Source: an uncultured virus (IMG/VR IMGVR_UViG_3300028832_000009)
Lineage: Duplodnaviria > Heunggongvirae > Uroviricota > Caudoviricetes
DNA length: 20,000 bases
Direction: 5' to 3' (one strand)
Virus record (IMG/VR): IMGVR_UViG_3300028832_000009
Shown piece after piece: positions 1 through 20,000 of this stretch (position 1 is its first letter; every line of letters starts with the position of its first letter). A program made the position numbers and the translations under genes. The notes beneath the pieces are model-generated. The model made no database searches. It had not been told where the DNA came from and worked only from the letters and a program-made list of their open reading frames with translations.

Positions 1-480
1 GAACTCTTCGTTACTGCCGGCCTCGGCCATCATCTCATACCAATCCGTAGTACCATAGTCGGTATAGGCATTGCCATCTCCGGTACTGTGCTGGAAGAGC
101 TGATTGTACTTTATGAGCCTCCAGATGCCGTCCAGCTGGTTGACTATGTCGAGCATCTCCTCGGATATGAGGTGCTCGTACCCATATTCCACGCAGCCTT
201 TCGCATAGGCGGTCACAGTATGGATTACTTCGTGAAGGAACGTGTCCGCTTTCATCTGGTCGGTAATCCAATCGGAGTTCATGTACTTCCAGTTGTAAGT
301 CAGCTCCTGTCCCGCAGTATGTCCCCCGACATTGTTAGGGGTTTTCTCGTTGAAAATGGTGGTAAGACCGAGTTTCTTGACAAGAGGGAACACCTTCTTC
401 GCTATCTCGGCATTGCCCTTGTCCTTGTTCAGCTTGTTGAAGTTCTCTTCGACGACATCGAACGGGACTTCGCCTGCCTC
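1..480 (-). other. Zincin-type metallopeptidase domain within the giant protein
   Basis: FLHEVIHTVT with HEXXH at 234-220, followed by DYGTTDWYEMMAEAGSNEEF (60-1). This matches the YG...E..AE..SN..F pattern of metallopeptidase domains in polyvalent proteins. Confidence 0.8.
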
Positions 481-3400
481 AAAGTGCAAGAGGTTTCCGT
501 GAACCCCTCGCACCGCGAGTTCCTCCTTCTCGGCCTCGCGCTTTGCATACAGGGAGTCCCTGCGCTCCTTGCTTGTCGCCTGGGCGATTTCCTCATCTTT
601 TATGAGGACATCCCAGGCCATCCTTATGGAGTCATTCTTCGCGGCTTTCTTGCGCAGGTATGCCTGACGGGCCTGGACAAAATCGCGGATCTGCTTCTTG
701 AGGTCCTCGTTGTTCACGTCCATCTTGTACTGGTCAAGCATCTGCTTGAGCTGGCGCTCTATATCCCATTGGTCAAGGTTATTTCCATACTTGTCGTGGA
801 ACTCTTTCAGAACCTCCTCGTATGGCTTGTCGGTATAGACTATGGCGTCCACCCTTTCCGTGCTGTCAGGCATGATGAAGAGCGTCTCCTTGGTGAATCC
901 GTAGTTGCGGTAGAGGTGGTCGAGTACGGCCTCGACATTCTCTTCCGTCACGGTAGCCCTTATCGTATCCTTTGTCCAGGCGATGAAGGTATTGTCCACC
1001 AACAGGGGCTTCAGGTCCTCGTCGAGCATGAGAGGGTTCTTGGCGAGATTCTCCCTGCTCCTCAAGGGGCGCAGATATTGCACTACCATCACGTCTCCAT
1101 CACGGCGGACCTCTATGTTCGTCTTGTCATCATAGATGCCGTTGTATCCGTTCCACACATCATCCTTGGTGACTGCGCTGCGTATCTTGAAGTTCTCCGG
1201 GTCGAAGTCCTCGGCGAGCAACATACCCCTGTCCACGGTCACCTCCCCGGTATCCGTGTCTTTACGGGTGAAGGTGGTGATGGTGCCCTTGTACTCTCCG
1301 AGCTTTCCGCAAGCCTGGAGGATGTTCCCGGTAATCATATACCGGATCTGCCTCGTCGTCTGCTTGGGGACCTTCTTGTCCCACCACTCATCCCTTGCCG
1401 TGCGGCGGGTTTCATCGGTGATGTTCTTGTCGTATGTCGGACCGCCTATCTCCCTCAAGTCAGAGCCGAGGCCGATGGTTCCATAGACATTGTTCACTAT
1501 CCAAGTGATGATGTCATATTTTGAGACCACGGGAATCTCGATGACGGCGCGGGCGTCGGTCACGGCGAATACCGCCCTGACACTCTTCGGCTTGCCATCC
1601 TTCGCGGTCTTGAAAGCGATGAAACGGCCATAGCGCTTCTGCCCGTTGAGGTCATCGGTAAGGGGAACGAGAACCGGCATACCGGGCTTGAGGTACTCTC
1701 CAGCCCTCTCGACACGGCCCACCTGCGTTGACAAGTCCATATCAAGACGGTTGTACTCGTCCATATTCGTACTAACGAGCTCCCTGTAGCTGGGATCGTT
1801 CCTGATGGCCCTGTCGTAATCTTCTTCGGTCTGGTCATCGGTCTTGGGCGTGGCAACTTTAAGGGCCTCCACCAATTGCTCCTGAGCCTCGAAGTTCTTC
1901 TTCTCCTTGTCGCGCAACACTTCATCCCGGTATTTGGAAGATGCCTCATATATGTTGGTGCCATAGAGAGGGTCAATCTTCCCATCTTCCGTGAGCGCAC
2001 CGAGTTTCCTCATCCTTGCGTAGATTTCGGGGGAGCGGAGGGGCTTCTTGAGCACATCCACCTCAACCCTTTCCATATTGGTATCGTGGGCGAACACCGA
2101 CATTGACTCGTTGTCCTTGCCCTTGATGAATATGGCCTGGTCCACGGTGGTCGCGTTGAGGTTCATCGTGGTGGTGGCGAGGTCGTTGATGCCGTTCTGG
2201 TTGAGGTAGTCTATCTGCTCGACATACGCGCTCTCCAGCTCCGTGAGGATCAGCTCCTGCCTCTTGCAAGACATTCGCTGCGCCCCCTTGAGCAACTCAT
2301 AGAGCAAGCCGTCGCGATGCTCATACTCACCACTCTTCTTCTCGATGGGGTCATCGAGATTCTGGTTGACTTCGGGGTGGTCGATAAGGAACTGACGGGC
2401 TACCTCATCGCCGTACTTGTTGTCCATATCGTTCGCATCCACCTTGTTGGACGACACCTTCTCCGTACCGACGGCATTGGCATCCAGGGATGCGAGTTTC
2501 TGCTTGAGCATCATTATTATCTTCTTCTCCGCAGGGATAGGGCTCATAATGTAGAAGTATTCGCATCGTGCCACCTGTCCGGTACGGTCTCCGCGGCCTC
2601 GTATCTGAACTTCTACATTGACGTCCTTTGCCGGCTGGAGGATAATCATCGTCCTCTTGCGCTGGTCGCCGAAACGCCGGCTGGCGTGAAGGGATATACC
2701 CGTAGCACCCGCCGTGTTGAGGATGACGGCGTTATTAACCTCGCTCTCGTCGAGAGGGGCTGCTGCGCTGCCGCCGTTGAAATGGGTGATTTCCGAAGTC
2801 TTGTCTATCTTCATCGGCACCCGCTCCCAATTGCCGTCCGCTTTCTGCCTGAGCGACCAGCTGCGCCCGGTTATCTCGCCGCACCTGTAGCCGGCCTTCT
2901 CTATCTCCGACTTGATGTAGTCGATAGGGGAGAGCATCAGGGGCAGGACCTCCTTGTCCTGGCTGTAGTTCTGGATGCTCTGGCGTATGATATTGGAATA
3001 TCCGTTGCCCATTATCTTCTCGAATGAACCGAGTTCGGAAACGGAACTGTCCTCCTTGACGGTCTCTTCCGTATGCGTCTCCGGGTTAATCCACTTGACG
3101 GTGCTCTTGAGCCGGTACTTCAGGCTCTTCTCCAGACCGCGGTTGAGGATGAAGGCAAAGTCTGCGGAAGGCACTTCTCCCTCGATGTCCTTGATATAGC
3201 TTTCAAGAGTGTTGTCCACCGCAATGATGGGCTTCTTGCCCTCCTTGATCTGGTTGATGGCCATCTCCGCAGCCTTGCGGGCCTTTATCGCATAGAACAT
3301 AAGGCTCGCCACGTTCGATACCTGGCTGGCATAGGGGGTGTAGGTGTACTCGCGGATGGTTACTTTCGTTCCCTCGTTTGAGGTTTCAAGCCTCTTCCGC

Positions 3401-6400
3401 GCTGCCTTGTTGGCCTCCTCGAACTGCTCCTTGTTCATCTTCTTGATGACAGGGTCCATCATCTGCCTCTGCATCGAGATGATTGAGTTGACGATGTCCG
3501 TCGTCTTGTCGTAGGTATCCCTGGACTGCTTGATTTCCTCTTCGGTGAATACATCCTTGGGTTCATCCCAGTGTATCTTCACGTCCGAGAAGTCCCTCTC
3601 GCGACGCACCATCTCTCCGGTCCTGAACAGACCTTCGGCGAGGATTTCCTGCATGGGAACGCCGTACTTCTGGATGCTCTCGATCATATCCTCCTGCGTC
3701 ATCTGCGCATCTCGCAGGGATGAGCGGAGGGCATAGAGCACCATATTGTCCGGGCGCTTGGCGAAGGTCGCGGACATAAATGTCACGCCCTGCGCGTTCT
3801 GCACTATGTCGCGGAAATAACCTCCGCGCCGGGATTCGCCGCTGGCGTTGTGGGATTCGTCGCAGATGACTATGGCATCCTTCGCGTACTGCTTCACCCA
3901 GTCGAGTTTCTTCTTCGCGCTGGGAGAGGTGGACTGGGCCTGGCTGTAGGTCATCATCACGACATTGTACTGCTTGCCCTTGAATGCCCCGCTCCACTTG
4001 ACCTTCGGCAAGGCATCGGATTCGGAGCCATAGAGAGCGCTCGCTACGGATTTGCCCGGGGCTTTCAGTATGACGTTCCCCTCTTCCTCGCTCTTGCCCT
4101 TGTCAACGATGGGGACGTTGTTCACTACGAAAGGAACGTGGTCGGTGCTGCCGATATCCACGAGATCCTGATACATATCGCTGAACAGGTCGGGTTTCTC
4201 CGTGACGAAGAGAATCTTCTTCTTCTCCCTCAAAGCCCAGCGGATGATAGCCGCACCCTGGCGGCCCTTACCCACGCCGGTCATATCTCCGACGATGAAC
4301 ATACGCCCGCCCAGCATCTGATGGAGCGCGAGAGCGACGGAATCCACCTGCTCGGAGGAGAGACCAATGTCCTTTCCGTCACCGGTGAACATCTCGTCGA
4401 GGGACTTGTATCCCTCCAGCCCCCTTACGAAGTCAGCCGCACCCTCCTTCTCTTCCGTCTCCATACGGAGGATTGCGTTGCGCATGGCGTCCGCCGACCC
4501 CGAAGGGACCACACTGCCAATTGCGTGTTCGCCCGAAGGGTCGGATACGGATTCGTATGGTACTTTCTCCTGGGTGAGCCTCTCGGATTTGTCGGCGCTC
4601 TTGGAGAACAGGTCGCGCAACTTCTCAAGGACGGCCCTGAGCTGGCCGCTCATCCTGGCTTTGGAGAGATCGTGCTTGTCGGTGATTGCGGATATGCCGG
4701 CTTTCAGCTCGTCCTTGCGGGCCTTCAGCTTTTCAGCATCCGTCTCGTTCTGGATGGCTTTCTTTTCCTGCTCGTAGGCTTTCTGCTCGGCCTCGGTAGC
4801 AGCGGCTTCGGGGTCTATTGCATCTGTGCGTCCACCGGTGTCTCGTCCCACACCGACGGGTCCTTCGGATACCACTCCGGTGCCAGTATTTCCAGACCTT
4901 CCTCCTTTACCTGTCGGAGTCTTTCGTCCAGATCCTTCTCCGACATCGGTTCTTCCTCCGTGTCCTTCACGATTTCCTGAAGTTCCACTCGGTTCTCCGT
5001 CGTCCCAAAGAGTGCCCTGTTCGCCTCCAGCTCCTTCTTCGGCGTCACTTCCTTGATTCCCGCCCGGCGCTGCATTTCCTGAATTATCTCCGGCGTTATC
5101 CCCGTCGGTGCCAGGAGTTCCGGTCTCTCCTCCAGCTCCTTCTGAGGTATCACCAGGTACAGCTCCAGGTCGCTGCCCTCCCTGCTGTAAATCAGTAGTG
5201 TCTTCTTTTCCATTATCGTTGTCGTTTATGTTGATATCTGCTACTTCGATTCCGCTGACGGTCTCGGCGCTGTCCATCTCTTCCTTGAACTCTTCCATTC
5301 CGGGAAGGTCACGCGCTCCGTTGTAGATGGCCTTGAGGTAGGGGCGGATCGCGTCGCCGAGGTCGTTTATCATCCTCTTGGCGAAGTCAATGAACTTCCT
5401 TGCGCCAGCCTCTATGTGATAGGCGGCCATCTGCACGCCGATGGAGAATACCTCCGGGTCGAATCCCGCGTTGAGCTGTCCGAGTTTCTCGCGCATCCTG
5501 CGCTTCAGTTCCTCGTACTGGTCTTTCGTTACGACGGTGTTGGATTCTCCGTAACCGCCCTCCGTGGCGGGAGCCGCAGGCTCTGCAGGTTCCGTGGTCT
5601 CGGGGACCTCTTCGGTCGCCGCAGGCTCGGATTCCTCCGCACCGGCGGCTACTGCGCCTTCTTCTGCGCTTTCAGCTCCTTCAGCTGCCTGTCCGCTATC
5701 TCCTGCGTTTTCTGCAGGTGATTCGACTCCGCTTGCAGGACTTCCTTCGCCCACTTGTCCCCCTCGCTGGACATCTTCTCCAGCGACTGAGTCAGAGCCT
5801 CGTTCAGTGTTACCTTCTTGTCCATTTTGTATAGTGTTTGCTTCCTGTTCGGAAATTACATTGGTCTGCGTGTATGCGCCGATGCGGTCAACGGCCTCGG
5901 GGTTCTCCCCGAACAGCCCGCCCTCTCCGTTCATTGCGGCGGCTATGTTGCGGAAGAGGTCGGTCAGGGCCTTGGCTTTCTTCGCGCCCTTGAAGATGGC
6001 TGCGAAACGCCTTGCCACGATGTTCGGATGCAGGTCGCCCTCGGTCTTGTCGCTGCCGAGTGGGACATTGTTCATCCAGTCCTCGATCGCTTTCCACGCC
6101 TCTTCGGTGGTCTTGGCTTTCTGGAATGCCGGGTCCGCGGTCTCGAAGTCGTGGTAGTAGGACAGTGCTGCCTGGATGTCAGGTATCACTCCCTCAAGGT
6201 TCGACAGCAGCGCGACATTCCTTTGCAGCGCCAATTTAACAATATTCGGCAACTTTTCATAGCCTGCCCTCACTTTTTCTGTCCCACTTTGGAACAAAGG
6301 TTCAAGGCTCAGCTCGCGGAAAGCGGCCACTGACGCATCTGTAAAGCGGACTTCTCCGCTCCTTGTGGTCTCCAGAGCATTTTGCAGCTCGGTATCGTTT

Positions 6401-9400
6401 ATGTATCCGTTGCGGTTCAGCCAGTTGAGTGCGAGCTGGCCGTTCGCGTTGATGTAGTCCGAGAGCGTGGCATCCTCGCCGAGATCGCCCCCGTAGAGGA
6501 TATTCAGGAACTCTTCCAGCCTGTCGCCTATCTTCTTCGCGAGGCCCTTGCCGGAGAAGGTCTGGTCGCCGCCCGACTCAAGGTCTTTCTGCTCCCTCTT
6601 CCCGAGTTCCTCCGCGCGTGCGTCGTCCACCGAGAGGACGCGGACAAGGATAGGGCTGTCCATTCCCTCGACCTGCTCCTTGGTGAGACCGAAGTCCTCC
6701 GCGTGCTCCGCGAGCCACTGCTTGTATCCGGCTGCGGTGTCCTGGGCGTATGCCCTGCGCAGCGCCTCGCTGCGTCCGTTGCCCTGGATGACCTCTCCAC
6801 GGCTGTTCACGATAGGCGCACCGCCGTATGCGGTGGCACCCACGGTTATCTCTTCCGGACGGATGCCGTTCGCCATCTGCTGTATGGCCACGGCGCTGTC
6901 CGTGCGGTTGCGGTTCTTCGGCTGCCAGTTCTTCGCGAAGAAATGCAGGGGATTCTCCTGATCCGCCACGTGGGAAGGGATGATGCGCTTGGCATCCACC
7001 AACCCGTACTTGGCATCCACCACCTCGGTCTTGGTGAAAGATATCTTCGTGTCCGCACCGGTGGCCGCCACGGCATCCTCCGCTGCGCGGTCCACGCGGT
7101 TTCCGTTCTGTATGAAGTATCCGCGCTCCTGCGCTGCCTCCGGAGTGTCGTCGGAGATGTCGGGCACGTTCCCCTCCACAGGTGCCTCGGGAGCCTGGGG
7201 CTCTGCCGCTGCTGTCGCTGCCGGTCGTGCCTGCCCCCTCTCCGGGCGCATCGCAAGGATGAGCGCACCGTAATTCTCCTTCTTCTGCTTTTCCTCCGCG
7301 AGTTCCTTGTAGAGCTTGGGGGCTTTCGCAAGGTCGGAGTTCTTGTCTATCCTCTCCTGTATCTTCTTCACCGCCTCCCCTGTTGCGGTGTATGCTTTCT
7401 GCACTTCCTTCAGCGCGTATTCTCCCAGCACGGAGTTCATATAATCCACGAGTTCGGGAATCCTCTGCGCGAAGGTCTCCTTGTCCACGTTGAACATATT
7501 AGCCATGTCCACCTCTCCGTCCTTCGTCCTGGGGAGGACGCCCTGCTGCGCCTCTTCCGCCGGAGCCTGCGGCTGGGCCTCCTGCCCCTCCTGCTGTCCG
7601 CCCTGCGCACCCTGAAGGGCTGCAAGGAAAGCCTGCTCCGTCATCGAGCTGGCCCTGCCGTTGCCGTCCGCATCCTCGTACTCGAAGTACACGCGCCCGT
7701 CACCCACCTCCGTCACATACGCCTGTACCGGCGATTTATTGACAAGTAGTGACAATTCCGTACCGACATAATCCCCGAGGTCAGTCGTGGGCTGCTGCTC
7801 CGCAGGTGCGGGTGCTTCCGCAGGCTGAGGCTGTTCCTCCTGTGCGGGCTGCTCCGCTCTCTGGGGGGAGTAGATCTGGACGTTTCCGTCCTGGTCTTTC
7901 TGCGCCATGTCGTAGAGAGTCTCCGCGGACACGACATTCATACTGCCGCCCTTGCCCTCGTCCCTGACGGTCACTCCGCCACGTCCGTCGGTGTTCACTA
8001 TGGTCACGGGAGAGACACTGCCGGTCTCGTCCTGGATGAGTATGGTCTGGCCTGCGAGTCCGTTGATGACTGCCGCCTTCCCCGAGGGGCTGATGGTACC
8101 CACCGCCTGCTCGAAGGCTACCTGCCGCTGGTCCGCGAACGATGCGGCGGACTGCGCGATGAAGTTCTCCGGGTTCACCGAATCGCCGTTCCGCAGGGTG
8201 CCGGACTTCACTATGAGTTCGTCTGCGGAGGGAGACGCCGGAGCGATGCGCACGAGGCCGTCCGCACCGCCTGCCGACACGGAGCCGTCAGCATCCACCG
8301 ACGCATCGTCCGTGAGCACTATAACCGGAGTGCCCTCGTACTCGGCGACGATGACCGCGCCGTTCTTGAGGGAAGCATCCCACACCGTCCGGGAGAATCC
8401 GTCTATCATGTCCTCCGTCTCCTTGCGGTATCCGTCACGCAAGCCCTGGGCCGCAGCCTTGACCTGCGCGTATTCCGTAAGGACTTCCGCTGCCTCGGCG
8501 TTGCCCTGTCGTTCGATCACGGCAGCTTCCTGCGCGAGACGGAACGGATCTTTCTCAAGGTCATCCTCGTCCAGCCCCGCCTCAAGTGCGGCCTGCCTGG
8601 CGGCATCCTCCGCGGAGACGATGTCCCACGCGCTGCCGAGGTCGGGGAAGGAGTAGGTGCCGGAATAGGCATCCACCACCCTTCTCTTCTCCGAGGACTG
8701 GTCCCAGAGGTCGGATTCCATGTTCATCGAGAGGTTGCCCTCGACATAACCCAGCAGCGACTGCGCGAAGTTGTCCGGCAGCTTTCCTCCGGCTGCCTTC
8801 CTCGCCTTGTCCGCTATCTCCACGACGCGGTCCTTGATATGTTCGGGAGTGCTGTTGCGGATGTCGCCCACGAGGGAATCGAGGTCCTCCTGGGACACGG
8901 CTCCGCTCTCCACCATCGGCTTGAGGGTCTCCACCGCCTTGTCGTAGCGGTTGACCATTGCGTTATACGCCTTTATGTTCGTCCTTGCGCTGAGCGCCGA
9001 CATGGGCAGGAACGAGAGGAAGAGCGTCGCGAGGTTGTCCCCTGCGAAGAACTCCTTCATCGCCTCCTTGTCGCCGAGGCGGTCTCCGGAGAGCCAGCCT
9101 GCGGTGGAGTTGAACACCGACCCCACGACCTCTTCCAGCATTTCGTTGAACATACCGTTGAACTTGCCTTGGTCGAGGAACCTGCCTATGCTGCCCCGGT
9201 AGTCCGAGAGTGTCTTGCCTATGGCACTTGCGGGTGCGTTCTTCGTCACGGACTTGAACAGGGCTTTCTCCCCGGCTCCGAAATACTCGCCGAATCCCTC
9301 GGACCAGTATTCTATGTACTGCGTGAGCGCGGTGTTGAGGGCCGCGTTGGCACGGCTCCTGTCGAACTTCAGCCGCCCGTGTTCGTCCTTGTATTCCCCT

Positions 9401-10911
9401 GTCGTCAGGATGAGGTTGTCTGCGTATGCCTCCGCGGTGCGGGGGAAGAGCAGCGCGGTGCGCTCCGCAGCCACGCCCGCATCCGCGAGCATCTTCGCAG
9501 CGAGGTTGGGCTTGATGCCCCTTGCCGTGAGTTTCGCCATGGCACCGGGCAAGTCTGCCGCTATGTTCGAGGCGCCCCTTGCCGCAGCGCCTTTGCTCAG
9601 CCACTGCCTCGTGGCCTTGGTGGCGATATTCCTGGCTGCGCGGGCACCCATCTTCTCCAATCCTCCCGTGAGTATGAATCCCAGCATGAACTCGGCGCTC
9701 TGCTCCGCTGCCTGTCCGGCCTTTGCGTAGGTGGATGCGGACGCGGCTTTCACGCCGTTTATGTAGGAGTATCTGTCAAATGCCTTGAGGACTTCCTTCT
9801 CTCCGTCGGTGAGTCCGTTCTGCAGGGCCTCCGCTATCGCGGCGGACACTTCCTCCTGCCTGTCCTCCGGGACGGCTCCGTCCTTCACTCCGAAGGAATC
9901 CAGCACGTCGGTGATGATCGCGCCGGCCTTGTCGCCCACTTCGCGGACATTGCTCTTGGCGAGAGCGTTGACCAGGCCGAAGGTGAGGGAGTTCTCGTCC
10001 ACCATCCTTCCGGCTGCGCCTGCGAACTGCCTGACCGCCACGGCTATGTCCTCGGGCACGCCCTTCAGCTCCGCCTTATCACCCAGCTTGGATTCCCTCT
10101 CGGTGATGTTGGAGAGGCGGCGTACGGTCTCCCAGTTCTTCAGTTCCCTGTCGTTATAGACGGTGCGTCCGCCTGCGGTGGCGGGAGCGCTGAGGCGTTC
10201 GCGTGCGGCGTTGCCCGCATCCTTCGCCCCTGCGAGTGCGCCCTGGAACTCCGAGGTCTGCGTGAGGGCGTTCGCTATGAGCGCCTTTTTATCCTTATAG
10301 GCTTTATATCGCCCTTCATTTTCCTTGAGCCAGGCGACATCCTCCGCGTTGAGGGTGGGTGACATCTCGTCGATATCGGTAGTCAGCGATGCGTTGCGTG
10401 CCTCGTATTCCTTGGCGAACTCCGCATCCTGCCTGTCCACCTCTCCGGCCATGGCGGCGAGAGTGGCGGCATCCCTACCCACATAGGGGTTGCGTTCCGC
10501 GGCTTCGAGGTAGTCCTTCGTGCTCTCGGGAGCCTGCGCGAACGAGCTGGTCTCGGGTGCTGCGGGTTCCTGCGGCTCGGGCTCCGGCTCCTGCGCCTGT
10601 GCCTGCGCCTTCCTCTCTTCTCCGCGCATCCACCTGCGCGTGCTGCGCGGTGCCTGGGAGAAGGAACTCGTGGCGAGCGGATCGGGGGCTTCCCCTGCAG
10701 GGACCTCGGGGGCGTACAGCTTGGAGGCGAACTCCTCGTAGTCCTTGCCCAAGTCGGAATACCCCGCCTTGGAGAGAAGGTCGTATGCTATCCTGCTGTT
10801 CTCCCTGTCCCTGAACAAATCCTCGGCGCTGTCGCCTATGTCGGTATAGCCCTCCCTCTTGAGAAGGTCATACGCGAGCTGCCGGTTCTGCAAATATCTG
10901 TCGTCTGCCAT
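1..10911 (-). CDS. Giant large polyvalent protein (putative DarB-like virion ejection protein), >3637 aa, 3' end outside the window
   Basis: ATG at 10911 (MADDRYLQNRQLAYDLLKREGY...), 8 nt after the TAA of the previous gene. The ORF track lists no minus-strand ORF in this register below 10911, which implies no stop before the window edge. The segments I translated by hand (1-960, 2440-2760, 3560-4620, 4800-5900, 6180-7080, 8900-10911) are open. The long plus-strand ORFs (88, 2317, 3850, 6382, 8839) are all antisense shadows in this register. Recognisable domains are listed below. Confidence 0.95.
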   Translation of the reverse strand, partial: MADDRYLQNRQLAYDLLKREGYTDIGDSAEDLFRDRENSRIAYDLLSKAGYSDLGKDYEEFASKLYAPEVPAGEAPDPLATSSFSQAPRSTRRWMRGEERKAQAQAQEPEPEPQEPAAPETSSFAQAPESTKDYLEAAERNPYVGRDAATLAAMAGEVDRQDAEFAKEYEARNASLTTDIDEMSPTLNAEDVAWLKENEGRYKAYKDKKALIANALTQTSEFQGALAGAKDAGNAARERLSAPATAGGRTVYNDRELKNWETVRRLSNITERESKLGDKAELKGVPEDIAVAVRQFAGAAGRMVDENSLTFGLVNALAKSNVREVGDKAGAIITDVLDSFGVKDGAVPEDRQEEVSAAIAEALQNGLTDGEKEVLKAFDRYSYINGVKAASASTYAKAGQAAEQSAEFMLGFILTGGLEKMGARAARNIATKATRQWLSKGAAARGASNIAADLPGAMAKLTARGIKPNLAAKMLADAGVAAERTALLFPRTAEAYADNLILTTGEYKDEHGRLKFDRSRANAALNTALTQYIEYWSEGFGEYFGAGEKALFKSVTKNAPASAIGKTLSDYRGSIGRFLDQGKFNGMFNEMLEEVVGSVFNSTAGWLSGDRLGDKEAMKEFFAGDNLATLFLSFLPMSALSARTNIKAYNAMVNRYDKAVETLKPMVESGAVSQEDLDSLVGDIRNSTPEHIKDRVVEIADKARKAAGGKLPDNFAQSLLGYVEGNLSMNMESDLWDQSSEKRRVVDAYSGTYSFPDLGSAWDIVSAEDAARQAALEAGLDEDDLEKDPFRLAQEAAVIERQGNAEAAEVLTEYAQVKAAAQGLRDGYRKETEDMIDGFSRTVWDASLKNGAVIVAEYEGTPVIVLTDDASVDADGSVSAGGADGLVRIAPASPSADELIVKSGTLRNGDSVNPENFIAQSAASFADQRQVAFEQAVGTISPSGKAAVINGLAGQTILIQDETGSVSPVTIVNTDGRGGVTVRDEGKGGSMNVVSAETLYDMAQKDQDGNVQIYSPQRAEQPAQEEQPQPAEAPAPAEQQPTTDLGDYVGTELSLLVNKSPVQAYVTEVGDGRVYFEYEDADGNGRASSMTEQAFLAALQGAQGGQQEGQEAQPQAPAEEAQQGVLPRTKDGEVDMANMFNVDKETFAQRIPELVDYMNSVLGEYALKEVQKAYTATGEAVKKIQERIDKNSDLAKAPKLYKELAEEKQKKENYGALILAMRPERGQARPAATAAAEPQAPEAPVEGNVPDISDDTPEAAQERGYFIQNGNRVDRAAEDAVAATGADTKISFTKTEVVDAKYGLVDAKRIIPSHVADQENPLHFFAKNWQPKNRNRTDSAVAIQQMANGIRPEEITVGATAYGGAPIVNSRGEVIQGNGRSEALRRAYAQDTAAGYKQWLAEHAEDFGLTKEQVEGMDSPILVRVLSVDDARAEELGKREQKDLESGGDQTFSGKGLAKKIGDRLEEFLNILYGGDLGEDATLSDYINANGQLALNWLNRNGYINDTELQNALETTRSGEVRFTDASVAAFRELSLEPLFQSGTEKVRAGYEKLPNIVKLALQRNVALLSNLEGVIPDIQAALSYYHDFETADPAFQKAKTTEEAWKAIEDWMNNVPLGSDKTEGDLHPNIVARRFAAIFKGAKKAKALTDLFRNIAAAMNGEGGLFGENPEAVDRIGAYTQTNVISEQEANTIQNGQEGNTERGSDSVAGEDVQRGGQVGEGSPASGVESPAENAGDSGQAAEGAESAEEGAVAAGAEESEPAATEEVPETTEPAEPAAPATEGGYGESNTVVTKDQYEELKRRMREKLGQLNAGFDPEVFSIGVQMAAYHIEAGARKFIDFAKRMINDLGDAIRPYLKAIYNGARDLPGMEEFKEEMDSAETVSGIEVADININDNDNGKEDTTDLQQGGQRPGAVPGDTSEGAGGETGTPGTDGDNAGDNSGNAAPGGNQGSDAEEGAGGEQGTLWDDGEPSGTSGNREGHGGRTDVGEGSGRKTPTGKGGRSGNTGTGVVSEGPVGVGRDTGGRTDAIDPEAAATEAEQKAYEQEKKAIQNETDAEKLKARKDELKAGISAITDKHDLSKARMSGQLRAVLEKLRDLFSKSADKSERLTQEKVPYESVSDPSGEHAIGSVVPSGSADAMRNAILRMETEEKEGAADFVRGLEGYKSLDEMFTGDGKDIGLSSEQVDSVALALHQMLGGRMFIVGDMTGVGKGRQGAAIIRWALREKKKILFVTEKPDLFSDMYQDLVDIGSTDHVPFVVNNVPIVDKGKSEEEGNVILKAPGKSVASALYGSESDALPKVKWSGAFKGKQYNVVMMTYSQAQSTSPSAKKKLDWVKQYAKDAIVICDESHNASGESRRGGYFRDIVQNAQGVTFMSATFAKRPDNMVLYALRSSLRDAQMTQEDMIESIQKYGVPMQEILAEGLFRTGEMVRRERDFSDVKIHWDEPKDVFTEEEIKQSRDTYDKTTDIVNSIISMQRQMMDPVIKKMNKEQFEEANKAARKRLETSNEGTKVTIREYTYTPYASQVSNVASLMFYAIKARKAAEMAINQIKEGKKPIIAVDNTLESYIKDIEGEVPSADFAFILNRGLEKSLKYRLKSTVKWINPETHTEETVKEDSSVSELGSFEKIMGNGYSNIIRQSIQNYSQDKEVLPLMLSPIDYIKSEIEKAGYRCGEITGRSWSLRQKADGNWERVPMKIDKTSEITHFNGGSAAAPLDESEVNNAVILNTAGATGISLHASRRFGDQRKRTMIILQPAKDVNVEVQIRGRGDRTGQVARCEYFYIMSPIPAEKKIIMMLKQKLASLDANAVGTEKVSSNKVDANDMDNKYGDEVARQFLIDHPEVNQNLDDPIEKKSGEYEHRDGLLYELLKGAQRMSCKRQELILTELESAYVEQIDYLNQNGINDLATTTMNLNATTVDQAIFIKGKDNESMSVFAHDTNMERVEVDVLKKPLRSPEIYARMRKLGALTEDGKIDPLYGTNIYEASSKYRDEVLRDKEKKNFEAQEQLVEALKVATPKTDDQTEEDYDRAIRNDPSYRELVSTNMDEYNRLDMDLSTQVGRVERAGEYLKPGMPVLVPLTDDLNGQKRYGRFIAFKTAKDGKPKSVRAVFAVTDARAVIEIPVVSKYDIITWIVNNVYGTIGLGSDLREIGGPTYDKNITDETRRTARDEWWDKKVPKQTTRQIRYMITGNILQACGKLGEYKGTITTFTRKDTDTGEVTVDRGMLLAEDFDPENFKIRSAVTKDDVWNGYNGIYDDKTNIEVRRDGDVMVVQYLRPLRSRENLAKNPLMLDEDLKPLLVDNTFIAWTKDTIRATVTEENVEAVLDHLYRNYGFTKETLFIMPDSTERVDAIVYTDKPYEEVLKEFHDKYGNNLDQWDIERQLKQMLDQYKMDVNNEDLKKQIRDFVQARQAYLRKKAAKNDSIRMAWDVLIKDEEIAQATSKERRDSLYAKREAEKEELAVRGVHGNLLHFEAGEVPFDVVEENFNKLNKDKGNAEIAKKVFPLVKKLGLTTIFNEKTPNNVGGHTAGQELTYNWKYMNSDWITDQMKADTFLHEVIHTVTAYAKGCVEYGYEHLISEEMLDIVNQLDGIWRLIKYNQLFQHSTGDGNAYTDYGTTDWYEMMAEAGSNEEF
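2440..3260 (-). other. Strawberry-notch helicase C-terminal domain (Helicase_C_4-like) within the giant protein
   Basis: KKPIIAVDNT...; VILNTAGATGISLHASRRFGDQRKRTMIILQPAKDVNVEVQIRGRGDRTGQ (about 2730-2575); KQKLASLDAN. Confidence 0.9.
3560..4560 (-). other. Strawberry-notch P-loop/SF2 ATPase domain (AAA_34-like) within the giant protein
   Basis: SSEQVDSVALA; Walker A GDMTGVGKGR (4290-4261); MTYSQ; Walker B ICDESH (DESH at 3861-3850); motif III FMSATFAKRPDNM (SAT at 3774-3766); GEMVRRERDF. Confidence 0.92.
4815..5213 (-). CDS. Nested out-of-frame small acidic protein (132 aa), function unknown
   Basis: Lies in the +1 frame relative to the giant gene. Start context is CATAAACGACAACGATA-ATG, stop is TAG. 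Codons in this frame end mostly in G/C. The host frame over the same interval is a low-complexity G/E/D/T linker (NGKEDTTDLQQGGQRPGAVPGDTSEGAGGETGTPG...). Confidence 0.75.
   Translation of the reverse strand: MEKKTLLIYSREGSDLELYLVIPQKELEERPELLAPTGITPEIIQEMQRRAGIKEVTPKKELEANRALFGTTENRVELQEIVKDTEEEPMSEKDLDERLRQVKEEGLEILAPEWYPKDPSVWDETPVDAQMQ
5649..5825 (-). CDS. Nested out-of-frame small helical protein (58 aa, MDKKVTLNEALTQSLEKMSSEGDKWAKEVLQAESNHLQKTQEIADRQLKELKAQKKAQ), function unknown
   Basis: Shorter than any ORF in the track. Same +1 frame, start context GCAAACACTATACAAA-ATG, TAG stop at 5651-5649. Hand count: about 48/58 codons end in G/C in this frame versus about 16/58 in the host frame. 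Confidence 0.7.
   Translation of the reverse strand: MDKKVTLNEALTQSLEKMSSEGDKWAKEVLQAESNHLQKTQEIADRQLKELKAQKKAQ
6450..7050 (-). other. DdrB-like ParB superfamily domain within the giant protein
   Basis: YGLVDAKRIIPSH...WQPKNRNRTDS...MANGIRPEEI...GGAPIVNSRGEVIQGNGRSEALRRAY...YKQWL...FGL...PILVR. This is the motif order of the ddrB-ParB family found in polyvalent proteins. Confidence 0.85.
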
Positions 10912-13116: not shown

Positions 13117-16050
13117 ATGCCTGTAAGCGAACTGAATTTCAAGGGAATCAACAGGGCCGTTTCCGACTATTCCTCGGACGGATCCTGCGAGGAGCTGACG
13201 AACCTGCGCCCCACCACGGGCGGGCTCGTCCCTGTAAAGCCTTTCGGACGGATGATGGAAACCGTCTATGACAAGATATACGAGCACCGCGTGAGCGACG
13301 GCACGAACTACCTTGCCGTGAGGTACGCCAACGGCACCCTCTCGTGTCACCAGATAGACGACGAGGGGCAGGCCATAGGCGCGGCGCTGTTCATCATAGA
13401 GGACCCGCACATCATCTCGATGAAGTACAGCTTCGCGGCGGTGAGCAACCTCGCGCTGTTCAGCTGCATCGTGGAAGCCTATCCGAGAAACCTCAGCCAG
13501 AACATCACCCTCCGCTGGACGGGGGACGGATACGTCAAGATGGACAGCTGGATGCCGGCCATATCCGCGTCGTTCTCCGTGGATGATTCGTACCTCGGGA
13601 ACTTCAAGGTTCCGAACTTCACCCAATCCACGCCGATGACGGAGATCCAGGACATCATCGCCACGGGGTACAACGGACTGCAGGAGAAATACAAGGACTA
13701 CTGTTTCGGCCAGGCGGTCATCGCCATAGCGCTCAAGACCGCGGACGGAAAGACCTTCTGGACGGGGCAGTGGATACCCATCAACCCCATACCCGTGTAT
13801 AAGGACAGCTTCGGCCCGCTGAGTTCCGCACACTATTTCGTGGACGAGACCTGGTCGGGCGCACAGTACTTCCCCGACTTCGAGAGGGACTTCCCCGACG
13901 GAGGCTACTATATAGCGAGGGGTACGGCATCGAACAGCTACGTGTACGGAGCGGCCCTGAAAATCCGCATGACCCTGGGGCGCGTCTATGGCTGGTCGGA
14001 GGACACTTCCATAGTGAGGAGCGCGGAGATCTATGTGTCGCGTCCGCAGTTCGTGGCGGACATAAGCAAGAAGGGCGGGCAGATATCGAGCGTGGGGGAC
14101 GTGGTCGCTCCGGAACTCACTCCCGACCTGATAGACCTCGGGGGGCAGCTCCTGTACCATCAGAAGAGTATCCCCATGAAGGACCTCGTCCTGGCGGACC
14201 AGTCGTTCATCCTGCATTTCGGCGGGAACATACAGACCACCTCGGAGACACTGCGCGTGGATTCGGGAGCCGTGGCGCACTTCGGTGAGGTTCTGGCATA
14301 CAACTCGCGCTTCCACATCTACGGCGGCATCCGCAGGGAGTGGCTGTCCAAGCCGAACTTCTCGGGCATCTATCCCGGTTCGGGAAACGCCTGCAAGATA
14401 TTCCTGATATACAACGACGGGGAGAGGAACGTGCCGGTCTATGTAGGCACGGGCATCCACCACACCGACGGACTCATCCTCATAGCCCCTTCCATCCGAG
14501 TGAGGGAGGTCTGGGTGACATTCGCCATCCAGGGGGGCACCGCGACCTACTATAACCTCTACAAGTACGCGATGACCGATTCGGCGAGGTACAACTACAC
14601 CATAAACACCGAGGGCGCGTACTATGCCGAGGCTCCTTCATCCCCTTCGGACGAATACACGGAGCTGGAGACGCTCGCGGAGGACGGCGCGAAGAGTTTC
14701 GTGGAGGTGGCCGAGCCGTCCGCGATCAACGTCAGCGAGCAGTACAACCCGTTCGTGTTCGACGTGAACCACTCCTACCTCGCTCCGGGAAAGATACTGG
14801 ACATCCTGCCGCAGATGGTGGCGGTGAGGGACGTGTCCTTCGGGGACTACCCGCTGGACATCTTCACCGACCGTGGCGTGTACGCGCTGCTGCAGGGCAC
14901 GGGGACGGTGCTCTACGGCGCGTTCCGTCCGATATCGAACCTCGTGGCGCAGTCCAACGGGGTAGCCACGGAGAACGGCACTTTCTTCCTCGCTGCCGGC
15001 GGGCTCTGGCTCGTGGCCGGCGGGAACTCCGTGCTGGTGAGCGACGCGCTCTCCCTGGGGCCGCACAAGTACATAAGGAACTGTACGGGGTACATAGCCA
15101 TCTGCCGCGGGCACTACGACACGTCCGGCACCGAATCGCAGGTGTCCTTCGAGGACTTCGCCGCTGGTGCGTCGCTGTCGTACAACCGCTTCCGGGACGA
15201 GCTGATCATAAGCAACCCCACCTATTCCTACTCCTACGTCCTCTCGCTGAAGTACCGGCAGTGGTTCAAGATACCCGTGGCCTTGACGCAGGACTCGGTG
15301 GGAGACCACATCGCATCCGATCCGGTCATCACCACGAGGGTATGGGCGTACAAGACCTTCCAGGCTCCCTTCCTCCCGGAAGGTTCCGTCCTGACACTTA
15401 CCCTGGCCATAGGGGAGGATGCGTACATCTTCTCCCACACCGTGACCGCGGAAGAGGCGGCGGCGGGCACGGACGCCATATTCGAGCAGTTCCGCCTGGA
15501 GTGGCAGGCCCACATCATAGGGAGTATGCTGCAGGGGTCCGTGATGACCTTCACCAAGGAGGAGCACCAGACATTAGGCACCCTATACACGATCCGCATC
15601 GACATAGACGGCCACGACTCCGCGGGGGACTGCAACGGCACCTTCTCCTACAGGACCACCACCAACAACCTCACCTTCGATTCCGAGTCGGGCAGGGTGA
15701 CGTACGACCTCTCGGACGAGACGGAGGGGACGGACATAGCGGTGCACCTGCAGTCGCGTCCCTTCTCCATGGGCGGCGGCCAGTACGGGCACATACACAG
15801 GGTGCTGCAGATGGTGCGGGCCTCGTCGGGAGACCTGACCGTCGCGCTCTACGGCAGCGACAACCTGCAGGACTGGGCGCTGCTCTCCTACGCGAACAGG
15901 AGCGGCAAGAAGATAAGCCAGATACGCACCGGCCCTGCGGCGAGGTCGTGGCGGTACTACACGATAACCATCGGCGGGGCAGTGCCCGACGACACGGACT
16001 TCGGTCCCACGATGATAGACTTCGAGCCCGTGAGGAGGCGGATAGGATAG
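13117..16050 (+). CDS. Phage structural protein, putative tail nozzle/DNA stabilisation protein (977 aa)
   Basis: Beta-rich. N-terminus FKGINRAVSDY...DGSCEELTNLR. Internal VSEQYNPFVF...FGDYPLDIFTDRGVYAL. C-terminal beta-sandwich LQSRPF...ALYGSDNLQDW...SWRYY. This pattern is typical of podovirus-like stabilisation/nozzle proteins. Confidence 0.7.
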   Translation: MPVSELNFKGINRAVSDYSSDGSCEELTNLRPTTGGLVPVKPFGRMMETVYDKIYEHRVSDGTNYLAVRYANGTLSCHQIDDEGQAIGAALFIIEDPHIISMKYSFAAVSNLALFSCIVEAYPRNLSQNITLRWTGDGYVKMDSWMPAISASFSVDDSYLGNFKVPNFTQSTPMTEIQDIIATGYNGLQEKYKDYCFGQAVIAIALKTADGKTFWTGQWIPINPIPVYKDSFGPLSSAHYFVDETWSGAQYFPDFERDFPDGGYYIARGTASNSYVYGAALKIRMTLGRVYGWSEDTSIVRSAEIYVSRPQFVADISKKGGQISSVGDVVAPELTPDLIDLGGQLLYHQKSIPMKDLVLADQSFILHFGGNIQTTSETLRVDSGAVAHFGEVLAYNSRFHIYGGIRREWLSKPNFSGIYPGSGNACKIFLIYNDGERNVPVYVGTGIHHTDGLILIAPSIRVREVWVTFAIQGGTATYYNLYKYAMTDSARYNYTINTEGAYYAEAPSSPSDEYTELETLAEDGAKSFVEVAEPSAINVSEQYNPFVFDVNHSYLAPGKILDILPQMVAVRDVSFGDYPLDIFTDRGVYALLQGTGTVLYGAFRPISNLVAQSNGVATENGTFFLAAGGLWLVAGGNSVLVSDALSLGPHKYIRNCTGYIAICRGHYDTSGTESQVSFEDFAAGASLSYNRFRDELIISNPTYSYSYVLSLKYRQWFKIPVALTQDSVGDHIASDPVITTRVWAYKTFQAPFLPEGSVLTLTLAIGEDAYIFSHTVTAEEAAAGTDAIFEQFRLEWQAHIIGSMLQGSVMTFTKEEHQTLGTLYTIRIDIDGHDSAGDCNGTFSYRTTTNNLTFDSESGRVTYDLSDETEGTDIAVHLQSRPFSMGGGQYGHIHRVLQMVRASSGDLTVALYGSDNLQDWALLSYANRSGKKISQIRTGPAARSWRYYTITIGGAVPDDTDFGPTMIDFEPVRRRIG

Positions 16051-16053
16051 GAT

Positions 16054-16464
16054 ATGCTCTGCATAGGTATCGACACGGGAGTGCATACGGGGTTCGCCGT
16101 ATGGGACACGGAGAGGAAGAGGCTCACGGAGCTGGCCACCCTGAAGATCCACATAGCGATGGAGCGGGTGCAGCGGCTCTCCGTCTCGGACGACATAGTA
16201 GTCTATTTCGAGGACGCGAGGCAGCGGACGTGGTTCGGCAGCGCCGGCAGGGAGCAGCTCCAGGGTGCGGGTTCCGTGAAGAGGGACTGCGGCATCTGGG
16301 ACGACTTCCTGAAGGACCTGGAGGTGGAGTATCACGCCATACCCCCGAGGCGCAACGCCACGAAGATGAACGCGGATTTCTTCGCGAAGGTGACCGGCTG
16401 GACCGGCAAGACCTCGGAGCACGCGAGGGATGCGGCGATGCTGGTGTTCAACAGGAAAGGATAG
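16054..16464 (+). CDS. RuvC-like (RNase H fold) Holliday junction resolvase (136 aa)
   Basis: IGIDTGVHTGFAVWD, VYFED, EHARDAAML: the acidic catalytic pattern of the RuvC family. Confidence 0.8.
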   Translation: MLCIGIDTGVHTGFAVWDTERKRLTELATLKIHIAMERVQRLSVSDDIVVYFEDARQRTWFGSAGREQLQGAGSVKRDCGIWDDFLKDLEVEYHAIPPRRNATKMNADFFAKVTGWTGKTSEHARDAAMLVFNRKG

Positions 16465-19289: not shown

Positions 19290-20000
19290 TCTAAGCTCAA
19301 GTACGAAATGCAATTCTAGACATTCGCCTTGTTAAACATACAAATATAAAAAACTTTCGGGGGCCTTCCTTGTTTAAACATACATCATTCCATCCAGGCC
19401 GGTCAGTTTTCGGAACATCTCATCAGGACTCCTGAAACCGAAACGACGCCGCGGTCTACTGTTGAGCATGTTCTCAACATATTCCAAATAGTCATCGGTA
19501 ATGTGCTCGAAATCAGACCCCTTCGGAAGATACTGGCGTGCGAGTCCATTTGTGTTTTCATTCGAACCACGCTCCCAGGAATGATACGGATGAGCAAAGT
19601 AAAACCCAACACCAAGCTCCCGTGACACGACATCGTGGCGGGCAAACTGCAGTCCGTTGTCTGATGTGATGGTTTTCACAAGGCCCACCGCAGCAAGATC
19701 ATTCAGGATGTCGATAATCTCACCTGCAGCTTCCGCTGCCGTCGGCTTCTTCAATTTGCGCAACCAGTACTTGCCGGTGGCTCTGTCGTTCAATGTAAGA
19801 ATGTGTTGGGAAGACCTGGCTCCCACAATAGTATCTACCTCGAAATCCCCAAAACGCTTCCTGTGGTCGACTACCTTCGGCCTCTGGTCAATATCAACCC
19901 TGTTTTGAATTGCACCGCGGCGTTTTCGCTTGGATCCCCTTTTATGAAAACGACGACCTTTATGGCGCAAGTGCGTATACAAATCTCCACCATGCTTTTT
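19290..20000 (-). mobile_element. IS30-family insertion sequence (one end in window)
   Basis: Transposase plus candidate terminal IR CTAAGCTCAAGTACGAAATGCAA (19291-19313). Its TCAA-N5-AAATGCAA core resembles IS4351-type ends as I recall them. Lower GC than the phage genes. Confidence 0.85.
19374..20000 (-). CDS. IS30-family DDE transposase, C-terminal part (5' end outside the window)
   Basis: IDQRP...RKRFGDFEVDTIVG, TITSDNGLQF, FAHPYHSWERGSNENTNGLARQYLPKG, LNSRPRRRFGFRSP. Confidence 0.95.
   Translation of the reverse strand, partial: KKHGGDLYTHLRHKGRRFHKRGSKRKRRGAIQNRVDIDQRPKVVDHRKRFGDFEVDTIVGARSSQHILTLNDRATGKYWLRKLKKPTAAEAAGEIIDILNDLAAVGLVKTITSDNGLQFARHDVVSRELGVGFYFAHPYHSWERGSNENTNGLARQYLPKGSDFEHITDDYLEYVENMLNSRPRRRFGFRSPDEMFRKLTGLDGMMYV

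Follow-up and report, generated by a model that had tools for sequence, protein, structure and literature searches.

The window analyzed here is a stretch of 20,000 nucleotides from the uncultured Caudoviricetes virus IMGVR_UViG_3300028832_000009, corresponding to bases 43950-63949 of a complete virus record of 64,077 bases with direct terminal repeats. The main features considered are a giant gene on the minus strand and two small open reading frames (ORFs), n1 and n2, which are nested within the giant gene in another frame. Sequencing runs bearing the stretch come from 10 studies of gut metagenomes, among them those of cattle and goats; the runs labeled as RNA have DNA twins of equal size and were given no weight. 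The source of the phage, whose complete genome is about 64 kb, is the ruminant gut. The giant gene, referred to as the host gene, comprises 5162 codons or about 15.5 kb (C1:54860..39372 in the genome). It encodes a ddrB-ParB domain, a Sno-type helicase module, an LPD38 domain identified by Pfam in the portion of the protein beyond the window, and a "middle" domain for which no Pfam family was matched. In tblastn searches, the middle domain matched 71 GenBank phage records, including those of Bcep22, Serratia phage Parlo, and Klebsiella phage SopranoGao, where the genes are annotated as DarB-like antirestriction or PLxRFG proteins, and it was 62% identical in two cultured Bacteroides phages, such as BKO1-TP3. 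Because of these matches, the host gene is assigned by sequence to the DarB-like or polyvalent class, in which one very large ORF joins several unrelated enzymatic and LPD domains. It shares the ddrB-ParB, helicase, LPD38, and middle domains with the known proteins of this class (Iyer et al., 2017, PMC5512222; Bcep22 gp75 and JC1 gp69). In neither part of the host protein did Pfam reveal a methylase family (E <= 0.01); an NPPFG-type methylase module was present in the relatives L016, L017, and L019.

The two nested ORFs lie in the linkers between the ddrB-ParB domain and the helicase, as stated in the original prediction, which was made from the letters of the window alone. Each is a complete ORF in the +1 frame with its own ATG and TAG, and the host gene reads through both without stops. 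Both ATGs were formed from the host codons AAT-GGA. The linkers had been described as coinciding almost exactly with the ORFs; both ORFs do lie within linkers, but the first linker exceeds n1 by about 105 bases of host-only sequence. The coordinates of all features are collected in the table below.

Features of the giant gene and its nested ORFs, in window coordinates
Feature	Coordinates	Strand	Remarks
Host gene, DarB-like/polyvalent	1..10911	-	first 3637 of 5162 codons; continues past window base 1
ddrB-ParB domain	6634..7032	-	host residues 1294-1426; Pfam PF18763, E 8e-32
A-rich unstructured initiation region of n1	5826..5855	-	11 A in last 20 bases; A at -3
n1, +1-frame nested gene	5649..5825	-	ATG 5825, TAG 5649; 58 amino acids (aa), isoelectric point (pI) 8.0, predicted helical hairpin
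Host linker only, no nested gene	5542..5648	-	about 105 bases after n1 TAG; Pro/Ala/Glu-rich, hypervariable
Middle domain	5284..5541	-	86 residues; 94% identical to L005, flanks 57-59%
A-rich unstructured initiation region of n2	5214..5243	-	11 A in last 20 bases; A at -3
n2, +1-frame nested gene	4815..5213	-	ATG 5213, TAG 4815; 132 aa, acidic pI 4.5, predicted alpha/beta fold
AAA_34 P-loop domain, Sno-type helicase module	3562..4365	-	host residues 2183-2450; Pfam PF13872, E 6e-21
Helicase_C_4 domain	2386..2880	-	host residues 2678-2842; Pfam PF13871, E 3e-18

The base composition changes sharply over the two ORFs. Throughout the host gene, the G+C content at host codon positions 1/2/3 was 0.60/0.41/0.74, and the same pattern was found between n1 and n2 (0.63/0.40/0.74) and after n2 (0.61/0.40/0.74). 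Over n1 and n2, the values were inverted to 0.83/0.59/0.28 and 0.72/0.65/0.33, respectively. When read in their own frames, n1 (0.58/0.28/0.83) and n2 (0.65/0.33/0.72) had the normal coding pattern. Hence, the coding periodicity belongs to the +1 frame precisely where the two ORFs lie and reverts to the host frame between and after them, which agrees with the earlier observation that the third-position G/C bias moves into the nested frame and returns. Such a shift was rare within the 15.5-kb gene: of its 44 off-frame open stretches of at least 60 codons (17 in the +1 and 27 in the +2 frame), only those of n1 and n2 had a coding-like periodicity of their own, and the other 42 encoded Arg/Pro/Ser-rich junk.

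The regions upstream of both ATGs resemble sites of translation initiation, and the local A-richness that had been noted there as a Bacteroidota-type feature was confirmed. Among the 125 +1-frame ATGs of the gene, those of n1 and n2 were the only two preceded by at least 11 A in 20 bases, a content found in just 0.56% of the 20-mers of the gene. For comparison, the 17 candidate gene starts listed for the phage had 4-12 A upstream, with at least 8 in 12 of them and 10 at the start of the giant gene itself. The RNA folding energy from -30 to +20 was -3.9 kcal/mol for n1 (within the weakest 1.8%) and -0.3 kcal/mol for n2 (within the weakest 0.3%), against a mean of -11.8 kcal/mol for 50-base windows of the giant gene. 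In one published account (PMC6847099), Bacteroidia are described as ignoring the Shine-Dalgarno sequence, with initiation being tuned by low structure and an A at position -3. The Bacteroides -7 promoter motif TAnnTTTG had zero occurrences in the whole giant gene, and thus there was no sign of an internal promoter. Recoding of the stop codons was considered and rejected, since the phage carries no transfer RNA genes, TAG is an ordinary stop that ends eight of the 23 genes checked, and the frames past the nested TAGs become junk.

Both ORFs were retained in relatives of the host gene. The preset tests of the original prediction asked whether homologues keep the +1 frames open and whether independent assemblies contain compensating insertions or deletions (indels) at the ORF boundaries. 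No stops were found in either ORF in L001 and L005, or in n2 in L018, and independent assemblies had no compensating indels, so that both outcomes favor the prediction. In L005 (L002/L005), where the flanking protein is only 57-59% identical, +1-frame ORFs were found at both places. The ORF at the n1 site has 58 codons and shares 27 of 58 residues with n1 without any indel, and the nested frame aligned with a higher score (131) than the host frame (99). The substitutions per host codon position 1/2/3 over n1 were 0.31/0.41/0.24, so that position 3 was the most conserved, as opposed to the flanks of n1, where host position 3 changes most (0.5-0.6). The ORF at the n2 site has 116 codons in L005 and 122 codons in L018, and the alignment score between these two was 314 in the nested and 255 in the host frame. 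In all four loci where the middle domain is followed by a Sno helicase (the window, L001, L005, and L018), n2 was present. Other relatives have different modules at the n2 site, so the comparison offered no empty site.

Searches for further n2 DNA added no new loci. No match was found by tblastn and blastn of n2 and the n2 region against 50,697 GenBank phage records, by two metagenome scans and one scan of genome contigs, or among 401 Bacteroidales genomes searched; scans of viral sequences returned only loci that were already known (L003 and L022). At the protein level, in contrast, n2 belongs to a recognizable family. When 5.8 billion proteins were searched with a profile built from four sequences, 10 more clusters (120-134 aa, E 1e-19 to 1e-35) were identified, and 17 hits were obtained when 1.84 billion representatives were searched exhaustively with a profile. 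In an alignment of 13 rows, 10 sequences begin with Met-Ser-Lys at the first column, all indels are whole codons of the nested frame, and motifs such as WDETP and KPMTExQL are retained. The 303-aa database protein P0017 carries an n2 domain at residues 182-303, C-terminal to an unrelated part for which no Pfam or PHROG family was found, and by its sequence this protein may be a free-standing form of the n2 domain. AlphaFold2 models of n2 (13 sequences; predicted local distance difference test, pLDDT, 81.6; predicted template modeling score, pTM, 0.69) gave an alpha/beta structure with strands at residues 4-11, 17-23, and 76-83 and a long helix at 92-110. No fold match was obtained for it, with a best E of 0.41 in a Foldseek search of the PDB, a best E of 0.03 in BFVD, and a best Z of 3.0 by VIA-align among 48,161 chains; the best score in the ESM Atlas was an uninformative 0.76. 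For n1, two database relatives were identified at 98% and 49% identity, including the 62-aa called protein P0030, and a helical hairpin was predicted by AlphaFold2 (four sequences, pLDDT 90.4).

The original prediction also held that selection acts on the nested proteins and that the host linker is a by-product. The composition, the initiation regions, the conservation, and the family and predicted fold of n2 support the former. The latter was not upheld. When n1 and n2 were recoded synonymously with the codon usage of the phage, the host frame stayed open in only 11% and 1.9% of the recodings (P 0.11 and 0.019), respectively. Additionally, the host peptide over n2 contains 30% Gly, compared with 19% expected from recodings that stay open, and 7.5% hydrophobic residues compared with 10.5% expected, with 3% of the trials being as low. 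The host peptide over n1 did not show such a drop in hydrophobicity under recoding (0.085 observed, 0.093 expected). Because the host frame is open beyond expectation and enriched in Gly over n2, the stretch is regarded as dual-coding and the linker as more than a by-product. Both reading frames are thus maintained by selection at n1 and n2. Taken together, n1 and n2 are likely to be genuine genes that encode proteins in the +1 frame within a giant DarB-like/polyvalent gene. Each stretch of DNA very probably has two products, a spacer in the giant protein and a small protein of its own.

Several observations weigh against this conclusion. Between the window and L001, the seven changes in n2 were five non-synonymous to two synonymous in the nested frame and four to three in the host frame, and at this depth, with small numbers, n2 showed no short-term purifying selection in the nested frame. 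For the eight changes in n1, the counts were four non-synonymous to four synonymous in the nested frame and seven to one in the host frame. The two distant n2 pairs aligned with higher scores in the host frame than in the nested frame (78 and 59 for window-L005, 115 and 85 for window-L018), which was put down to the Gly-rich low complexity of the host peptide; these pairs were not counted as support. An open host frame over n1 is not rare by the recoding value given above. The helical prediction for n1 is cheap evidence, given that short helix-formers readily produce it, and with its two database proteins the n1 family is tiny. The called n2 homologues were compared as proteins only, apart from their genomic context, and the contigs that confirmed the assembly came from runs listed as DNA or of unknown kind, which are silent on RNA and translation. 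Finally, neither Pfam, PHROG, fold matches, nor complex prediction suggested a function for n1 or n2. The case is weaker for n1 than for n2.

Four other explanations were weighed against this evidence. An artifact of assembly, where compensating indels of one or two bases at the ORF borders would fake the frame switch, has a negligible probability. The 98%-identical contig L001 comes from another metagenome and differs from the window at 156 positions over 7.9 kb, while both n1 and n2 are intact in it; the same frames were seen in L005 and L018 and in contigs of four further studies that were aligned to window positions 4400-6300. No indel of one or two bases was found in the latter, the sole indels being 9-base insertions at 5575 and 5578, outside the nested ORFs. 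A compositional accident, where T-poor and purine-rich linker DNA happens to be open in several frames and the ORFs are meaningless, is very improbable. It would explain why the plus strand and other frames are open here too, and outside the nested regions an open +1 frame is found in 9.6% of the windows of 59 codons and in 1.3% of those of 133 codons. ORF length by itself is thus poor evidence for n1 and n2. An accident does not account for a coding periodicity that is confined to two of the 44 long stretches, nor for the conservation of the ORFs and the family and fold of n2.

The two remaining explanations accept that the ORFs carry a signal. If n1 and n2 were relics, that is, former stand-alone genes swallowed by the growing polyprotein and now serving as linker only, their own frame would no longer be translated. 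The clearly maintained host frame and the mostly non-synonymous n2 changes noted above would fit such relics, and the translation of n1 and n2 is predicted from sequence. However, the ATG, the stop, and the open frame have outlasted a divergence to 57-59% flanking identity, the A-rich unstructured start regions have been kept at a cost to the freedom of host codons, and the n2 family retains a foldable core. The adjacent host-only linker also gains indels and substitutions much faster: it had six to seven listed substitutions in three of the four further runs together with the two different 9-base insertions, and it differs greatly in length from L005, whereas n1 and n2 had zero listed substitutions in three of the four runs, and eight and seven in the fourth, an L001-type strain; these counts come from a listing that leaves out 16 further differences. 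Relics are accordingly improbable. A programmed +1 frameshift near the ATGs would instead produce truncated isoforms of the giant protein with alternative tails that end at the TAGs, and no independent small proteins. Both ORFs are indeed on the same strand in +1 and stop shortly before the next module, an agreement noted here although no dedicated search for shift sites was made. But the ATGs sit four and 10 codons into their respective open stretches, all n2 homologues predicted by gene callers begin at or near the same Met, the start regions resemble those of the phage's own genes, and the equivalent nested ORF of Bcep22 has a canonical Shine-Dalgarno sequence. A frameshift thus appears quite improbable as well, and nested genes remain the preferred explanation.

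In a separate observation, one contig of run X3 links 5684 to 6073 through 403 other letters, with matching sides of just 24-33 bases; it may represent a relative with a different segment at 5684-6073, or a chance match.

The presence of +1-frame ORFs in the linkers of homologous giant genes, another expectation of the original prediction, was observed in a survey of 31 non-redundant loci that share the middle domain (seven near-identical loci were dropped). All +1-frame ORFs of at least 50 aa with an ATG were scored, and an own-frame log-likelihood ratio above 10 was taken as a coding call. As this score is weak at low G+C content of the third position, the counts are lower bounds. At least 16 of 159 +1-frame ORFs passed, spread over 13 of the 31 loci, compared with zero of eight +2-frame ORFs. 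The coding-like ORFs were located at module boundaries. They group into several families whose members resemble each other more closely in the nested frame than in the host frame. For example, a nested family of 54-65 aa ending in GLCDLD had scores of 189 and 184 in the nested frame versus 74 and 89 in the host frame, the pair L017-L025 had scores of 139 versus 60, and the pair L008-L024 shared 111 of 125 residues in the nested and 93 of 125 in the host frame.

Certain sites were occupied repeatedly. Directly after the middle domain, three lineages carry n2, and L020 and L039 carry a protein without evident similarity to it, while the linker between the methylase and the helicase carries a nested family in L016, L017, L019, and L025. 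A relationship between the latter family and n2 was rejected (hhalign probability 0.2%). Similarly, n1-like ORFs of L032 and L035 are not claimed as homologues of n1, as the n1 profile missed both. The middle domain is common to Bcep22-type DarB-like proteins across phyla, and a nested gene is often found directly after it. In Bcep22 gp75, a 107-aa +1-frame ORF just after the middle domain (L046:9359-9682) had a log-likelihood ratio of +86.5, and GAAGGAGG, a canonical Shine-Dalgarno sequence, lies eight bases upstream. This ORF was kept in all 31 matching Burkholderia and Ralstonia phage records, where the giant gene alone is annotated. In gp55 of the cultured phage BKO1-TP3, whose host is Bacteroides koreensis, two +1-frame ORFs were found at L045:6980-7144 (54 aa, log-likelihood ratio -2.0) and L045:9527-9790 (87 aa, +5.7). 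The second adjoins the end of the middle domain, and 11 of the 20 bases preceding it are A. None of the GenBank records examined, that of BKO1-TP3 included, has a coding sequence annotated inside the giant gene. The pair n1 and n2 is a real and well-supported hidden pair, and one instance of a recurrent, unannotated architecture.

Two loci of the survey showed further irregularities. In L024, from an Alistipes metagenome-assembled genome, the giant gene is broken by a CAG-to-TAG change at 1535-1537 and by a 2-base deletion at about 5300, just past the nested gene, which may reflect either a decaying prophage or an assembly error. The nested ORF at 4884-5258 (124 aa) is intact there, with only an in-frame deletion of six bases. 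In L012, a 343-aa ORF at 1200-2231, which by eye is tyrosine recombinase-like, adjoins a giant gene that is present there in truncated form, with a host frame that is open from only about 70 codons ahead of the middle domain.

As for the nature of the nested proteins, 18 distinct ones compared with PHROGs gave no clear family and one weak match over 32 residues, and 22 compared with Pfam gave no match at the family cut-off, with weak rows at E 0.009-0.24. Predicted complexes of n2 with the middle domain (residues 1770-1899) or with the N-terminal region of the helicase (2033-2200) had a score of 0.00, which, being obtained without controls, weighs neither way.

To what extent the arrangement is new was also considered, as it had been put forward as undescribed. 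This claim has to be qualified. In literature searches that joined polyvalent proteins with overlapping or out-of-frame genes, nothing relevant was found, and the main text of the paper that defines the class (Iyer et al., 2017, PMC5512222) mentions neither overlapping genes, frameshifts, nor linkers. Elsewhere in phages, however, a published precedent exists. The account of the "ShiLan domain" describes out-of-frame HNH endonuclease genes within insertion elements of mycobacteriophage DNA methylase genes (Arsenault et al., 2025, PMC11855218). As described there, these resemble n1 and n2 in that a complete gene is contained out of frame in a larger phage gene, which reads through it as a loop or linker, in that the mode of translation of the inner gene is unsettled, and in that annotation overlooked it. 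By the same account, the inner gene is a selfish homing endonuclease inserted in the gene of a catalytic domain. In contrast, n1 and n2 match no known family, and homing endonucleases were indicated neither by Pfam or PHROG families of n1 and n2 nor by a fold match of n2. Furthermore, n1 and n2 lie at module boundaries of a giant multi-domain protein, and no alleles with an empty site were seen.

In classical overprinting, the new frame encodes a small accessory protein, and one of the two products is disordered. The stretches of n1 and n2 likewise would encode two proteins, one of them disordered, but their composition suggests the reverse order, in which the small genes are primary and the disordered linker of the host is derived. 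Same-strand nested genes of which both products are made include the embedded spanin gene Rz1 in Rz and the genes E in D and B in A of phiX174. As in these cases, n1 and n2 are small genes wholly within a larger gene on the same strand in another frame, although their products are predicted. Rz and Rz1 are both folded, functional partners, whereas at the n1 and n2 sites one reading gives a spacer of low complexity, and any functional tie of the small proteins to the giant one is hypothetical. The embedded Rz1 class is, according to one report, also carried by Bcep22-like phages (PMC9144972).

A model of expression can be outlined from these results. Ribosomes that start at the ATG of the giant gene would stay in frame 0 through both stretches and produce flexible spacers rich in Gly, Asp, Glu, and Thr, which separate the middle domain from the modules on the ParB side and from the helicase module. 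A second set of ribosomes would load internally on the long messenger RNA at the two A-rich and nearly unstructured sites and start at the ATGs at 5825 and 5213, and this internal, Shine-Dalgarno-independent initiation of the Bacteroidia type is the most likely mode. This would give rise to a helical hairpin of 58 aa and an acidic alpha/beta protein of 132 aa, both physically apart from the giant protein. The small genes look like the older reading of the DNA and the linker like the secondary one. Every coding-like nested ORF occupies host frame +1, which puts the host in the -1 frame of the nested gene, the frame poorest in stops. In the giant gene, open runs average 40.6 codons in +2 and 24.4 codons in +1, in keeping with this order.

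We infer both the production of the small proteins and their roles, for which two possibilities were considered. Tentatively, n1 and n2 could be partners dedicated to the giant protein while it is in the producing cell, acting as helpers of assembly or packaging or as a restraint on a neighboring module. Both models of the original prediction, growth of the polyprotein by reading through former stand-alone genes and nested proteins as chaperones or inhibitors of a neighboring domain, are hypothetical. That they are instead independent host-takeover or anti-defence proteins placed in a permissive site is possible but doubtful. Partners are preferred over roaming accessory genes because n2 was found at only one site in all four loci for which DNA was available, and because families that are mostly free-standing would have been called and clustered. 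In the relative JC1, the equivalent giant protein gp69 was reported to be detected in virions by mass spectrometry (PMC9144972).

Elsewhere in the window, a transposase-like ORF was found near the genome end at 19374-19982 on the minus strand (PHROG 4646, E 4e-58), and a Holliday-junction-resolvase-like ORF at 16054-16464 on the plus strand (PHROG 1770, E 2e-24). A 977-aa ORF at 13117-16050 had a weak PHROG match to a family without known function.

A wider generalization, which at present seems rather unlikely, is that linkers between modules of DarB-like/polyvalent proteins generally arise by reading small genes through in another frame. In this case, a multi-gene operon would have been welded into one injectable polyprotein, with certain small proteins kept inside the gene yet physically separate. 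If true, the virion would receive the giant protein, while the producing cell alone would receive its small partners, such as chaperones, adaptors for packaging, or proteins that restrain toxic modules. The arrangement would then amount to a general means of dividing the products of one locus between virion and cell, as well as a large and systematically unannotated reservoir of proteins of phages and conjugative elements.

The nested genes matter beyond this phage, as giant DarB-like/polyvalent genes, each annotated as a single gene, account for at least a fifth of the genome in many phages. Cultured BKO1-TP3, with its unannotated +1-frame ORFs, and Bcep22, with its textbook ribosome-binding site, provide tractable systems. 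In evolutionary terms, it is the disordered reading that seems derived, and selection acts on both frames. Mutations or deletions in the "linkers" of giant genes would strike two genes together, and if such spacers routinely encode proteins, the proteomes of phages and plasmids have been under-counted.

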